This document shows, in pieces, positions 14,669-46,672 of a DNA stretch of 57,359 nucleotides. Below the pieces are notes generated by a model. That model was not told where the DNA came from. It was given only the letters and a program-made list of their open reading frames with translations, and made no database searches. The position numbers were made by a program, and so were the translations under genes. Numbering within the stretch: the first letter of the stretch is position 1; each line of letters begins with the position of its first letter. The DNA comes from a virus. Where the stretch lies: positions 1 through 57,359 of the IMG/VR virus record IMGVR_UViG_3300011429_000011; one strand, given 5' to 3'.

Positions 14669-15018
14669 TACTGACCTCGTTCGTCTGTAAGCGCCTGTTG
14701 CAATGGAGTGAGTGGCTTACTAGGCCGATACTGTCTGCATTTGTCACGATTGTTCAACGGATGCTGCTGCGCAATTTCACCGCAGATGCAGACTGGCCAT
14801 CTTTTGTCTCGGTCTGTGAATAATGCGTAGATTGCATCTTGACGTTGTTCCGATAATGTGTTACGAATCTCTAGTGTCGTAACGAATTCCCAGCCTGCAT
14901 CGGGTATAACGTCGCTGTAGTGCTCCGCCTCTCTTCTTGTCTCGTAGATCTTGCTAAGATGCAAGAGCGCCTTATCACCTAGCGCCCCACGACGTGTGAA
15001 AAGGTTTGCATATTTCAT
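14668..15018 (-). CDS. hypothetical protein (leaderless start at 15018)
   Basis: An ATG at 15018 lies 6 nt downstream of the -10 of promoter P1. The longer track ORF (to 15075) would contain the promoter. Confidence 0.45.
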   Translation of the reverse strand: MKYANLFTRRGALGDKALLHLSKIYETRREAEHYSDVIPDAGWEFVTTLEIRNTLSEQRQDAIYALFTDRDKRWPVCICGEIAQQHPLNNRDKCRQYRPSKPLTPLQQALTDERGQ

Positions 15019-15024
15019 GCCAGT

Positions 15025-15053
15025 AATATACCACAGTTTAAAACTGATTACAA
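15025..15053 (-). promoter_or_regulatory. conserved phage promoter P1 (TTGTAA-17-TATATT with CAGTTTTAAACTG spacer, TGn extended -10)
   Basis: Read on the - strand: TTGTAA tcagttttaaactgtgg TATATT. This is one of 11 near-identical copies. Confidence 0.6.
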
Positions 15054-15383
15054 GTCCGCAAATATCCGAGACCATGCATCGGCTGCAAACTTTAAGTTAA
15101 GCTGTTCGAGGAAGATTGCTGAAACACGCCAGCCTAGACGCTTCAGCTTTGCATGATTCTTTTCCGCGAGTTTCTGTTTGCGCGAATTGGGTCGCTGAAT
15201 CTCAACTATTCGCTTGGTTCGGGGATTTGCATAGTAGGCAATATATCGAGAACCCGCTTGGTCAAGGATAATCGTATATTGAGCTCTATAGCCTTTTGCC
15301 TCTAATTCAAGTTCATATTGACGGGGCAGGGTAGTGCTTACCAGTACCAATGAACGCGGACCTTTTGAACCTTGCTCTGCCAT
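15048..15383 (-). CDS. hypothetical protein
   Basis: 111-aa ORF, basic. Confidence 0.45.
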   Translation of the reverse strand: MAEQGSKGPRSLVLVSTTLPRQYELELEAKGYRAQYTIILDQAGSRYIAYYANPRTKRIVEIQRPNSRKQKLAEKNHAKLKRLGWRVSAIFLEQLNLKFAADAWSRIFADL

Positions 15384-15511
15384 GCGTTAAACCCTTTGTT
15401 TACAACAAGTTACAAGCTCGGCGTTCCACGTTGCCCTGTATTGGCGAAAAACGCTCCCCATGCTAGGGTATTAGGGGCAAGGTCAAAATGCCGCCTACGG
15501 CCTCCCAGGTG

Positions 15512-15541
15512 GGTCAAAATACCGCGCATTTGGCGCGTTTT
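15512..15541. terminator. bidirectional rho-independent terminator hairpin
   Basis: CCGCGC-atttg-GCGCGTTTT is followed by a T-run on the + strand. Preceding CAAAAT gives a T-run on the - strand. It lies between the 15570 gene end and the 15383 gene start. Confidence 0.45.
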
Positions 15542-15569
15542 GGCAGCTTTGCGCATGGAGTGGGTGAAA

Positions 15570-15971
15570 CTACTTCCGAACAGCCTTTTCGCGAGCCGCG
15601 GCGTTGAGTTTATCCCATTCGCCGCTGTCCATTTGTCTCTTGATGTATTCGTAGGCTGTGCGCTGATACCAACCGCCATCGCCACCGTTGATCGAACCGG
15701 GGAATGTGTCAGAGTCCTCGTGGCCCAAGAGCCACTTCCAGGCGATATAATGCGCCGTGGCCCGACAAACCGAGAGTCCACGTTCGTTCTCGATCTTCTC
15801 GAGCCAGAATGCCATATATTCCTTGGCAGTAAGGTCAATCGCTTCCAGAGGCATGACTTGCATTGCCTTTGCGACTTCAGTTTCTTCTGCAGTTAGATCT
15901 GCTTTGAGGAAAGGCTTGAGATGCTCGTAGTCGAGGCAGTTCAGATATTCCCCAGCTTCGAAGCCAAACAT
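15570..15971 (-). CDS. hypothetical protein (start at ATG 15971, 4 nt after upstream stop)
   Basis: The track ORF 15570..16058 is trimmed to an internal ATG to avoid an 85-nt overlap. Confidence 0.4.
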   Translation of the reverse strand: MFGFEAGEYLNCLDYEHLKPFLKADLTAEETEVAKAMQVMPLEAIDLTAKEYMAFWLEKIENERGLSVCRATAHYIAWKWLLGHEDSDTFPGSINGGDGGWYQRTAYEYIKRQMDSGEWDKLNAAAREKAVRK

Positions 15972-15972
15972 A

Positions 15973-44200: not shown

Positions 44201-44215
44201 TTCCCCTCCTATATG

Positions 44216-44569
44216 TTATGGAACAGATACGGATTCGCTCTTCTTCGGTTCGCTCCTTTCGCCCAAAATGAATTCCACGTCAATGACCTGTCCGGAACAG
44301 ATTTCGTCCCAGTGTTCGATGATCCACTGATGCGCGATTTGCATTGTGCGGCCACACGGCCAATTGTAGGGATCGTATTGCGCCTCTACTCCATCCAGCT
44401 TACATAGGATGATGTATGGCGCATAGTGATATAGCTCGGTGAGCTGTTCCTGCGAATATCCAGCTCGGCGGCACAAAAATAACTCGTCCGTATTGCGAAC
44501 GTGCAATCGAGTTGCCATCGCCGGAATGAACGTGGCAGCATCACGAATCTCGAGTATTTTTACTTCCAT
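44216..44569 (-). CDS. hypothetical protein
   Basis: 117-aa ORF immediately upstream of the MVP homologue. Confidence 0.45.
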   Translation of the reverse strand: MEVKILEIRDAATFIPAMATRLHVRNTDELFLCRRAGYSQEQLTELYHYAPYIILCKLDGVEAQYDPYNWPCGRTMQIAHQWIIEHWDEICSGQVIDVEFILGERSEPKKSESVSVP

Positions 44570-44732
44570 CTGACCCCTCCATGACGATTATCTGTTTCGT
44601 GCCGAATGGATTCTGCTGCCACCACTGTCGAGTTGCTGACTCTGCACCACAGTCTGGACAAGGGATCGGCCAGAATGGCCCTGTCTTTTCACCGTTGAAC
44701 CAATGGCCGTTCTTACAGACGATGAGCGCCAT
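44541..44732 (-). CDS. small zinc-ribbon protein (CKNGH…CPDCG)
   Basis: 63 aa. Confidence 0.45.
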   Translation of the reverse strand: MALIVCKNGHWFNGEKTGPFWPIPCPDCGAESATRQWWQQNPFGTKQIIVMEGSDGSKNTRDS

Positions 44733-44858
44733 TATTTGCTCAATAAGTTGTTAAGATTTTTTCTATAGGCCATTTCAAACTGTTGTAGAGGCCCAGAAAT
44801 AGAATCGCCATCAGGGTCACCAGCCACCCTGATAATTCGTCGTCCTCCGATATGTTGC

Positions 44859-45044
44859 TCATGTTTGCTGACTGAGGTGCTTGTTTGCCCAGTGGAACGC
44901 CCACGTCGCTGCCCACTTCAGGTAGTCGCCCTCGCTCGTCCCGAGATGCGCCCAGATCTTTGGCTTCCGACGCTGGATGATCTCCAGAATCGCTTTGCCC
45001 CACGCTTCCGCATCCAGTCGATACCCGTTCTTCGACATGCTCAT
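44859..45044 (-). CDS. hypothetical small protein
   Basis: 61-aa ORF. The alternative-frame ORF 44740..45060 is also possible. Confidence 0.3.
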   Translation of the reverse strand: MSMSKNGYRLDAEAWGKAILEIIQRRKPKIWAHLGTSEGDYLKWAATWAFHWANKHLSQQT

Positions 45045-45059
45045 CGCGAACCTTCCACA

Positions 45060-45626
45060 TTAATAACGACCTTTAAGGGTTGAGACTGGAATACCTGTTT
45101 TGACTGCCCAACCCGCAAATGTCAAAGATTCTCCTCTGAATGTTAAAGTCACAAGATTTTTGGATTCTTTTAGACGAATATGTGCTACGTTTTTTAAATG
45201 AGTTATCGTATGCGACAAATAATTCCGATGCGAAAACTTTCTACCCTTAGTATGAAATCTATCCGAAAGACCGCGAGTCTCACTGTTTGTACGAAATACA
45301 GATTTTAGTTCTTCCGACACAAAAGAAGTCTTTTGAGGAACCTGGAGTATCTCACAAATTACAGATTTTTTAATTCCGTGCGCCTTAATCCAATGTTGAG
45401 AAAGAGATTGGAATTTATCTTGTCCGCACCACCAACATCTACCAATTCTAATCGATTCTTGCAATTCTTGTCTCGTTGGATCGTTAGAGGAATCAATTCT
45501 CTTTAGTAGAGTGATTCTTCTATTCCTTTCGCGCGGAGTTGTAGAAAGGCCCGTCCGATTATAGATCGATCGTCCAGTTCTGTTTCCAGCACCTGAAGAT
45601 CCAAATCCGCCTATTAATTTTGGCAT
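45060..45626 (-). CDS. HNH homing endonuclease (free-standing) in an AT-rich island
   Basis: …RIGRCWWCGQDKFQSLSQHWIKAHG…. Start at ATG 45626, overlapping the upstream stop (TAATG). The local sequence is visibly AT-rich relative to its flanks. Confidence 0.5.
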   Translation of the reverse strand: MPKLIGGFGSSGAGNRTGRSIYNRTGLSTTPRERNRRITLLKRIDSSNDPTRQELQESIRIGRCWWCGQDKFQSLSQHWIKAHGIKKSVICEILQVPQKTSFVSEELKSVFRTNSETRGLSDRFHTKGRKFSHRNYLSHTITHLKNVAHIRLKESKNLVTLTFRGESLTFAGWAVKTGIPVSTLKGRY

Positions 45627-46672
45627 TAGCGATTCACTCGATAGACCTTGTTCTTCGGGACGCGGAACGGCATATTCTTCGGTCCTTTGAGGAACGGGCT
45701 CACCCAGATGAGTTTCCGCTGGATCATGTTCGGACCACACGGTTGCTGTCGCCAAAATCCATCAACTTCCCAGCGGCAAGACCAGTTGACTTTCTTCATC
45801 TCCTTCTGGATCAGGAGCTGCTCAGCGGTTGTAGTTTCGGGCTTCTCGACACGTCGCAGATTGATAACTTTGACGTGGTCGAGAGACTGTTCGGTCTTGC
45901 GGTTAAATTCCTTACGACGATGGCGTTCGATGTGCCCGGCTTCCTCGACTACGATTCGCTGATCTAGCCATGCGAGGCCAGCTAGAATGAATTTACAAAC
46001 TCCACTAACTGCAATTCTGAGATTATCCACCGCATCTGGAGGGATTAACAGTTCCTCATCCCTCTTATTCACGAGCTTCATATCGCATTTTGCTAACATC
46101 TCTGCGATAGTGTCGCCTTCTTTCCAACTACCAGTGAGGGATGGCCATGTCATAAAGGCGGGGATGTTATGATCACTCCAACCTACCATGTATAATTCAT
46201 TAACGGGAGGGATCCCAGCGTGTAACACCTGCTCGAACTGATTGATCGGCGAGCCCGCTGGGATGGTGATTCTATCAGGTTGAAAAGTGAACCAGCCCAT
46301 CGATAGGGCGCGTATTCCAATCTCTTGAAAGCCGGTCCGTTCGAATTGTTTGAGCGGAAGAGGTTGCTCAAAATGCCACCATGCAGCATCAGTGTTCAAA
46401 TTCCAAGTGCTGATTTTGGAATCGTCTGGGATGCTATGGCTAGCTGATAAAACAGCGCTCATCGTCTCAGCATTCCAAGCGAACGGAACGGCAGCTTTGA
46501 GAAGAACACGCGAAACAGAAAGAACCGCTTTCTGATCTAATCTCATTTCTAAAGTATCATAGCTAGGCCCGCCACGAGAGCAATAGTCGAGAGCAGCTAT
46601 CTGCCGCTCAATCGCATCGCGCCACGGTGCGTTCTTACCCGGACCGTGAACTAATTGTGGATGTTGTTCCAT
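45626..46672 (-). CDS. hypothetical protein (leaderless from P7)
   Basis: 348 aa. The ATG lies 6 nt after the -10 of P7. Confidence 0.5.
   Translation of the reverse strand: MEQHPQLVHGPGKNAPWRDAIERQIAALDYCSRGGPSYDTLEMRLDQKAVLSVSRVLLKAAVPFAWNAETMSAVLSASHSIPDDSKISTWNLNTDAAWWHFEQPLPLKQFERTGFQEIGIRALSMGWFTFQPDRITIPAGSPINQFEQVLHAGIPPVNELYMVGWSDHNIPAFMTWPSLTGSWKEGDTIAEMLAKCDMKLVNKRDEELLIPPDAVDNLRIAVSGVCKFILAGLAWLDQRIVVEEAGHIERHRRKEFNRKTEQSLDHVKVINLRRVEKPETTTAEQLLIQKEMKKVNWSCRWEVDGFWRQQPCGPNMIQRKLIWVSPFLKGPKNMPFRVPKNKVYRVNR

Follow-up and report, generated by a model that had tools for sequence, protein, structure and literature searches.

Predicted leaderless and near-leaderless mRNAs from four promoters that abut start codons in a metagenomic phage genome

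The virus record IMGVR_UViG_3300011429_000011 of IMG/VR, 57,359 nt in length and analysed here as a whole (the window), contains 11 copies of a promoter-like element. Four of these, termed P1, P4, P5 and P7, lie directly against the ATG of an open reading frame (ORF), and the original prediction was that they produce leaderless or near-leaderless mRNAs lacking a Shine-Dalgarno (SD) sequence. A short string had been quoted for each site. Each string is unique in the window, and all four are on the minus strand, which had been left unsaid (P1 15016-15030, P4 33082-33101, P5 37711-37727 and P7 46670-46684). The strings form the 3′ part of an element of 29–30 nt, TTGCAaTCaGTTTwAAACTGTGGTATAcT, that the four sites share. 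The sites fall within one co-directional minus-strand gene array, which extends from ~49 kb down to 13 kb. The four promoters, with their position weight matrix (PWM) scores, and the genes next to them are as follows.

15025-15053, minus strand: P1 promoter, TTGTAA-17-TATATT with a TGn extended -10; PWM score 44.2 bits
14668-15018, minus strand: P1 gene, a 116-amino acid ORFan if started at ATG 15018-15016
13814-14668: ATP-dependent DNA ligase gene, downstream of the P1 gene
33096-33124, minus strand: P4 promoter, TTGCAA-17-TATGAT with a TGn extended -10; 44.8 bits; in a 202-nt intergenic region
32194-33084, minus strand: P4 gene, a 5-hydroxymethyldeoxyuridine (5-hmdU) DNA kinase of 296 amino acids; Pfam HMUDK_hel
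37722-37750, minus strand: P5 promoter, TTGCAG-17-TATACT; 44.5 bits
37387-37713, minus strand: P5 gene, a CxxCxxCC zinc/iron-binding protein of 108 amino acids; overlaps the start of the DNA polymerase A gene
35436-37403: DNA polymerase A gene, behind the P5 gene
46679-46708, minus strand: P7 promoter, TTGCAA-18-TATACT, with no TG extension and a degenerate palindrome; 18.1 bits
45626-46672, minus strand: P7 gene, a conserved protein of 348 amino acids; an in-frame TAG lies 5 codons upstream

From the -10 hexamer to the ATG there are 6 nt at P1, 11 nt at P4, 8 nt at P5 and 6 nt at P7. These distances, together with the strings, the count of 11 promoters and their numbering, agree with what had been claimed. 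Bacterial transcription start sites (TSSs) are located 6, 7, 8 or 9 bp past the -10 hexamer in 8%, 55%, 29% and 7% of cases, respectively, with a strong preference for a purine at +1 and a pyrimidine at -1; initiation >2 bp downstream from the mode is rare (PMC5730371). At both P1 (TATATT ACTGGC ATG) and P7 (TATACT GGCAGC ATG), the A of the ATG is at position 7 and is preceded by a C at -1, and the predicted mRNAs start with AUG. A -10 motif situated 6–7 bp before an ORF is a recognised leaderless signature (PMC12340547). P5 (TATACT GGCCTTAC ATG) has an A at position 7, which would give a 2-nt leader (AC), and another at position 9, which would give a leader of 0 nt. P4 (TATGAT GGGTTTCTCAA ATG) has a GGG discriminator and only pyrimidines at positions 6–9; its predicted leader is most likely 5 nt (CUCAA) and at minimum 2 nt.

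With the TSSs placed in this way, the P1 and P7 transcripts match the definition of a leaderless mRNA exactly, and that of P5 nearly so. Some studies also count short-leader mRNAs as leaderless, with cut-offs of <10 nt or up to 5 nt (PMC8459731, PMC8244752), and mRNAs with very short leaders (1–10 nt) and no SD are a known class (PMC8459731, PMC8244752) to which P4 (2–5 nt) and probably P5 (2 nt) would belong. In Caulobacter, leaderless initiation is approximately halved with each nucleotide added at the 5′ end, and short leaders are inhibitory in Escherichia coli as well (PMC8459731). The P4 transcript is therefore not to be equated with a true leaderless mRNA; it is better described as a predicted very short-leader, SD-less mRNA whose translatability is uncertain. 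As judged from the geometry, the leaderless or near-leaderless reading is well supported at P7 and P5 and supported at P1, where there is a caveat on the start codon; it is weaker at P4 than at P7 and P5.

No SD motif is found at a spacing of 3–12 nt from any of the four ATGs. The anti-SD duplex energies upstream of these ATGs (P1 -2.9, P4 -3.6, P5 -1.5 and P7 -1.5 kcal/mol) are at background level, as the mean for random positions is -2.5 kcal/mol and the median for the chosen gene starts of the window is -6.65 kcal/mol. Among the chosen gene starts (n=92), 61% have an energy of -6 kcal/mol or better versus 11% of random positions; start-picking favoured SDs, so the 61% is an upper estimate. 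Many gene starts show AGGAGG or GGAGG, and from these sequences it is clear that most genes of the phage use canonical strong SDs. The predicted absence of an SD at the four starts thus stands. A strictly leaderless reading agrees with the geometry of P1 and P7, nearly agrees with that of P5 and does not suit P4, with its predicted leader of 2–5 nt.

The argument depends on the abutting ATGs being the codons that are used. At P4, P5 and P7 the ATG is the first ATG, GTG or TTG past an in-frame stop. The abutting ATG had been described as the first ATG of the ORF at all four genes, which does not apply to P1, where an in-frame ATG is present upstream, at 15075. In the P4 kinase, residues 8-284 align with positions 4-274 of HMUDK_hel, and the N-termini of nine viral homologues fall within a few residues of this position. 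The CxxCxxCC domain of the P5 protein covers residues 2-72 (profile 1-70), so any later start would delete the first cysteines. The P7 protein has a PG..PW..A.E.Q block at residues 12-25, and its homologues (n=11, 33–42% identity) all start 3–20 residues before this block. Four public contigs of the same phage, with independent gene calls, share the starts of P5 (the same 108 amino acids) and P7. Alternative SD-led starts within these genes were also looked for; none of the downstream in-frame candidates at P4, P5 and P7 has an SD at usable spacing, and one (TTG 14964) is present at P1. ORF structure, Pfam N-termini and homologue alignment together identify the abutting ATGs of P4, P5 and P7 as genuine starts. 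All four starts are ATG, compared with 60 of the 85 other chosen starts, which is weak evidence alone; leaderless mRNAs strongly prefer an AUG start (PMC8459731).

Perhaps, then, the true starts differ from the abutting ATGs and the mRNAs are ordinary leadered ones. Such an explanation is realistic only at P1, where translation might begin at TTG 14964 (codon 19, 98 amino acids) or, on read-through RNA, at ATG 15075 (135 amino acids). Both points tell against a leaderless P1 mRNA. The in-frame TTG lies 54 nt downstream and is SD-led, with AGGTGA at 10 nt, a good spacing and an energy of -6.7 kcal/mol; ATG 15075 is the start chosen by the public gene calls (P0013). The P1 protein is an ORFan with no homologues found besides the protein itself, so its N-terminus is not fixable by comparison. 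A log-odds test of codon usage, for which 20 long genes of the window served as the training set, speaks otherwise. The stretch from 15018 to 14964 (18 codons) has an in-frame coding score that reaches the 88th percentile of true coding windows, and 0 off-frame windows score as high (likelihood ratio ~28). On codon usage, P1 is very probably translated from 15018 or further upstream, and not only from the TTG. As to ATG 15075, it has no SD (-0.4 kcal/mol), and the form that begins there runs through its own promoter and overlaps the preceding gene by 28 nt. The longest-ORF rule, applied to a leaderless gene, has probably produced this call as an artefact of annotation. At P4, P5 and P7, alternative starts would delete conserved N-terminal residues and have no properly spaced SD. 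Starts other than the abutting ATGs are thus considered distinctly unlikely.

A core search combined with a PWM scan finds 11 members of the promoter family in the window, eight on the minus strand (-10 ends at 15025, 19685, 24278, 33096, 37722, 40019, 46679 and 48981) and three on the plus strand (49148, 56082 and 57096). The seven that do not abut an ATG are as follows.

19685-19713, minus strand: P2, leader of ~21 nt with a GAGGAG SD
24278-24306, minus strand: P3, leader of ~71 nt with a 5′ hairpin and a weak SD; a UvrD-like helicase gene is downstream
40019-40047, minus strand: P6, leader of ~41 nt with a 5′ hairpin and an AAGGA SD
48981-49009, minus strand: P8, first promoter of the minus-strand gene array; the first ORF has no clear SD
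49120-49148, plus strand: P9, divergent from P8, leader of ~105 nt with a 5′ hairpin
56054-56082, plus strand: P10, leader of ~15 nt with a GGGAGG SD
57068-57096, plus strand: P11, leader of ~66 nt with a strong 5′ hairpin and a GGTGAGG SD

Leaders of 35–110 nt with ribosome-binding sites (RBSs) had been assigned to these seven, and this is roughly correct. The exceptions in length are the promoters at 19.7k (27 nt from the -10 to the start codon, leader ~21 nt) and 56.1k (21 nt, leader ~15 nt), and the first genes at 24.3k and 49.0k have no convincing SD (-2.8 and -1.7 kcal/mol). A six-frame scan of the window revealed no further coding-strand ATG with a -35/-10 pair at so short a distance.

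The family has the features expected of sigma-70 promoters, i.e. hexamers near TTGACA/TATAAT separated by 17 ± 1 bp, and a position and orientation that match the genes. The -35 hexamer is TTGCAA, the -10 hexamer is TATACT, TATCAT or TATGAT, the -10 is extended by a TGn in most copies, and the spacer is 17 bp, or 18 bp at P7. All 11 copies are co-oriented with the genes downstream of them, and a back-to-back pair (49.0k minus, 49.1k plus) marks the switch in coding strand. An element identical at 28 of 29 bases is present at the syntenic position in a 1.6-kb metagenomic fragment, L010, in which the phage SNF2 helicase has a protein identity of only 49% to that of the window phage. Retention of 28/29 bases at this level of protein divergence argues that the element is functional and under strong constraint. 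The 29-nt element carries every sequence hallmark of a sigma-70 promoter, and from these hallmarks we infer promoter activity.

Within the spacer there is a palindrome of odd length, CAGTTT(A/T)AAACTG, 13 bp, found in all 11 promoters (e.g. 33103-33115, 37729-37741 and 40026-40038, minus strand). Both central-base variants are present, and the 19.7k copy is a shifted variant, ACGTTTTAAACGT. The palindrome is as strongly conserved as the hexamers and is also kept in L010, with its ~49% identical proteins. It suggests that a dimeric regulator binds between the -35 and -10 hexamers and co-regulates the whole family; no candidate helix-turn-helix gene for such a regulator was identified.

The palindrome also raises the question of whether the 29-nt element is a host sigma-70 promoter in the canonical register at all. 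It could be mainly an operator for a palindrome-binding protein, or serve a modified or phage-directed polymerase with a different start position, and the leaderless geometry would then have no relevance. RNA polymerase alone needs no palindrome of this kind. The -35/-10 pair at 17 bp, the TGn, the gene-matched orientation in 11 of 11 cases and the divergent pair at the strand switch are difficult to reconcile with this explanation, and an operator in the spacer is compatible with, indeed typical of, promoter function. The leaders provide a further point. In five leadered members (24.3k, 40.0k, 49.1k plus, 57.1k plus and L010), a stable stem-loop begins 1–4 nt past the canonical predicted TSS, which is consistent with the same TSS register across the family. 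We regard a non-canonical reading of the element as very improbable.

The leader hairpins are located at 24249-24268 (minus strand), 39991-40011 (minus), 49158-49187 (plus) and 57106-57135 (plus), and at 1267-1291 of L010, which retains the hairpin with a longer stem. Their energies are -12 to -22 kcal/mol (z about -2 to -3), and a GGCA...TGCC core is common to several. The hairpin may act as a 5′ stabiliser or as a protein-binding element, a role that would be impossible on leaderless transcripts.

The surroundings of the four promoters are compact. At P1 the upstream stop, TAA 15050-15048, is inside the -35 hexamer (TTGTAA), and at P5 the stop, TAG 37754-37752, ends one nt before the -35. 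The P7 promoter is wholly inside the 3′ end of an upstream ORF of 127 amino acids, whose TAG (46687-46685) abuts the -10. From upstream stop to ATG there are 29 nt at P1, 38 nt at P5 and 12 nt at P7; only P4 has a true intergenic gap, of 202 nt. No terminator-like hairpins are present upstream of the four promoters, and the count of such hairpins in the window is at background. With no terminators upstream, the four genes would also be carried internally on read-through RNAs, again without an SD.

It may be asked, therefore, whether the promoters are real and the four proteins come mainly from read-through RNA, by reinitiation or 70S scanning, the transcripts with a 5′ AUG being minor. The short distances from the upstream stops at P1, P5 and P7 and the absence of terminator-like sites upstream of the promoters fit this explanation, the P7 homologue is overlap-coupled to its upstream gene in relatives, and 70S scanning and reinitiation are established mechanisms (PMC9031893, PMC2268962). 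Coupling is implausible across the 202-nt gap at P4, however, and scanning or reinitiation normally ends at a canonical RBS (PMC9031893), of which there is none at the four starts. Read-through also leaves unexplained why, at two promoters, the ATG coincides with the modal +1 and has a C at -1; the probability that an open in-frame ATG falls at positions 6–11 by chance is roughly estimated at ~1% per promoter. Read-through as the main source of the four proteins is deemed unlikely, yet it is the alternative that we would take most seriously.

The genes behind the four promoters belong to different modules. That of P1 comprises the ORFan and the ATP-dependent DNA ligase, that of P5 the CxxCxxCC protein and DNA polymerase A, and that of P7 the conserved P7 protein and the genes behind it. 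The P4 module (27775-33084, minus strand) encodes the 5-hmdU DNA kinase, two TAGT-like (TET-associated) glycosyltransferases, a MobA-like nucleoside triphosphate transferase and a thymidylate-synthase homologue, a probable dUMP hydroxymethylase. This gene content points to glycosylated or otherwise hypermodified thymidine in the phage DNA.

The explanation that we favour, and to which we give somewhat better than even confidence, is that leaderless or near-leaderless mRNAs are made from the four promoters that abut ATGs. The early/replication region of a thymidine-hypermodifying phage would be driven by 11 copies of one strong sigma-70-type promoter. At P1 and P7, host RNA polymerase would initiate at the A of the ATG; the start would be 0–2 nt before it at P5 and 2–5 nt before it at P4. 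Translation of the resulting SD-less mRNAs would be leaderless, with a 70S ribosome and initiator tRNA assembling on a 5′-terminal AUG, and the gene copies inside longer read-through transcripts would be poorly translated. Given that there is neither an SD nor a terminator upstream, protein output would be tied to the firing of the proximal promoter. The simplest origin of the arrangement would be genome compaction, because at P1, P5 and P7 the promoter contains or adjoins the upstream stop. The sequences and spacings, the membership of one family, the start codons of P4, P5 and P7 and the lack of an SD are demonstrated here; promoter activity, the TSS positions and productive leaderless translation are all things that we infer from the DNA sequence.

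It should be pointed out that, besides the alternative starts in the P1 frame, a number of findings weigh against leaderless expression. At P1, P5 and P7, ribosomes that end the upstream gene 12–38 nt away could reinitiate on read-through RNA. On the Caulobacter scale, a leader of 2–5 nt at P4 would leave only ~10–25% of leaderless initiation (PMC8459731), and the most likely TSS at P5 gives a leader of 2 nt. P7 is the weakest promoter of the whole family, with its 18-bp spacer, no TG and 18.1 bits. An accessible, weakly structured 5′ end is expected of a leaderless mRNA (PMC8459731), and the minimum free energy of the first 25–50 nt at the four starts is within the range of other gene starts; P4 has the least structure, and in the minimum-energy folds the UG of the P7 AUG is paired within a 4-bp hairpin and all three AUG bases are paired at P5. 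Lastly, relatives express the homologous genes by way of an SD or overlap coupling, and conservation gives the leaderless layout no support.

These relatives are distant. In nine contigs (L001-L009) the HMUDK homologues, 39–56% identical, are preceded by SDs, e.g. taaggagcttctgaaGTG, with no promoter abutting them. In L020 and L021 the P7 homologue and the stop of its upstream gene overlap (overlap coupling). The promoter family is absent from the relatives that carry the kinase or P7 homologues, and the only close copies of the phage are 99.95% identical. The promoter-abutting layout is, as judged from these comparisons, a recent, lineage-specific arrangement, for or against which conservation has nothing to say.

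The original prediction went on to suggest that a mixture of leadered and leaderless mRNAs gives translational control. The strongest form of this idea is that one operator-bearing family is split into two post-transcriptional classes, the leadered genes having a hairpin and an SD and the leaderless ones being translated according to the state of the ribosome or its initiation factors in the course of infection, in a phiYS40-like manner. The modules for the ligase, thymidine hypermodification, DNA polymerase and P7 would then be those with a leaderless first gene. A single promoter consensus covers leaderless and leadered members alike, and this speaks against a division into classes at the level of transcription; nor is there any sequence sign of differential control between the two sets of genes. 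A two-class system is considered improbable. Temporal or ribosome-state control is speculation, for which there is one precedent, phiYS40.

In phiYS40, a phage of Thermus thermophilus, most middle and late transcripts are leaderless, with mapped TSSs, and IF2 goes up and IF3 down on infection (Sevostyanova et al. 2007, as reviewed in PMC3594737). The two phages are alike in having a promoter class set against start codons and transcripts without leader or SD, here as predictions. They differ in that the host phylum of phiYS40 is rich in leaderless genes, whereas only 4 of the 11 promoters are concerned here and most genes have strong SDs.

Lambda cI expressed from PRM, and the mRNAs of other lambdoid repressors, also begin with the A of the AUG at +1 of a sigma-70 promoter and are translated by 70S ribosomes in an SD-using host (PMC10491246). 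The lambda case is that of a single regulatory gene in lysogens, whereas here four genes of enzyme and replication modules are served by one promoter family, in an apparently lytic-type replication region. A further parallel is the ‘-10 motif adjacent to ORF’ of Deinococcus-Thermus, where TANNNT precedes the start by 6–7 bp, the geometry seen at P1 and P7, and AUG is preferred (PMC12340547). There, however, the motif is genome-wide (~30% of ORFs) and often without a -35 (PMC12340547), whereas here only a repeated full -35/-10 cassette is seen, in a phage of 50.7% GC. Leaderless genes are also present in Actinobacteria and Caulobacter (PMC8459731).

Leaderless expression from promoters that abut an ATG is thus well documented in phages and bacteria, and no new mechanism is proposed. 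If confirmed, the four promoters would offer a compact natural test system in which one promoter sequence drives both leaderless and SD-led genes. This would be of use for comparing initiation routes in infection and for correcting start annotation in metagenomic phages.

An efficient use of leaderless mRNAs by the host had also been surmised. In Pseudomonas aeruginosa 55 of 2187 TSSs are leaderless, and in the phage PhiKZ there are none (PMC8244752). The proportion of promoter-proximal genes predicted to be leaderless here, 4 of 11, is far above 55/2187 in P. aeruginosa. A leaderless-proficient host is thus a reasonable idea, albeit a speculative one.

Attempts to place the phage gave the following. 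A megablast search against deposited phages found no match, and the DNA polymerase is <28% identical to those of deposited phages. At the protein level, cultured phages of Pseudomonas, Burkholderia and alphaproteobacteria match best, with 26–46% identity. A search of viral contigs with the P7 protein gave no confirmed match, and a promoter motif scan of viral contigs gave none. In metagenomes the same motif scan found L010, a fragment of a related phage, and a single cellular secG locus; in genomes it found this secG locus again, in two Oscillospiraceae/Eubacteriales metagenome-assembled genomes.

At the secG locus (L011-L015, L022 and L023; e.g. L011 4741-4769), TTGCAATCCGTTTAAAACTGTGGTATGCT follows an A/T-rich stretch and is upstream of a SecG-like gene; the sequence fits the phage promoter consensus, including the spacer. 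The match may be due to chance or hint at the host; it was rejected as evidence on the host, as ~1 chance match is expected for a 21-base pattern. The first gene behind P9 (49262-49498, plus strand) encodes a YozE SAM-like domain (E 5e-10). The YozE family is mostly found in Firmicutes and is odd beside the mainly proteobacterial affinities of the other genes. The YozE-like domain, taken with a TRTG-type -16 element, points weakly to a Firmicutes host.

Two of the leadered promoters have leaders with features of their own. A long-range inverted repeat, CTGGGATCCCC ... GGGGATCCCGG, is present in the P8 leader (48875-48974, minus strand), and the first ORF that follows is without an SD; this may be a structured regulatory leader, with no match in Rfam. 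Rfam and tRNA scans found no known RNAs. In the P2 leader (19634-19678, minus strand), the GAGGAG SD is divided in the minimum-energy fold (-8.7 kcal/mol, z -2.15), its first four bases being in a hairpin loop and the other two paired in the stem. This modelled fold could modulate translation of the Pam3 gp33-like gene. Finally, a protein of 852 amino acids encoded at 41642-44200 (minus strand) has major-vault-protein shoulder, Vault_3 repeat and SPFH/Band 7 domains, which is unusual in a phage replication region.

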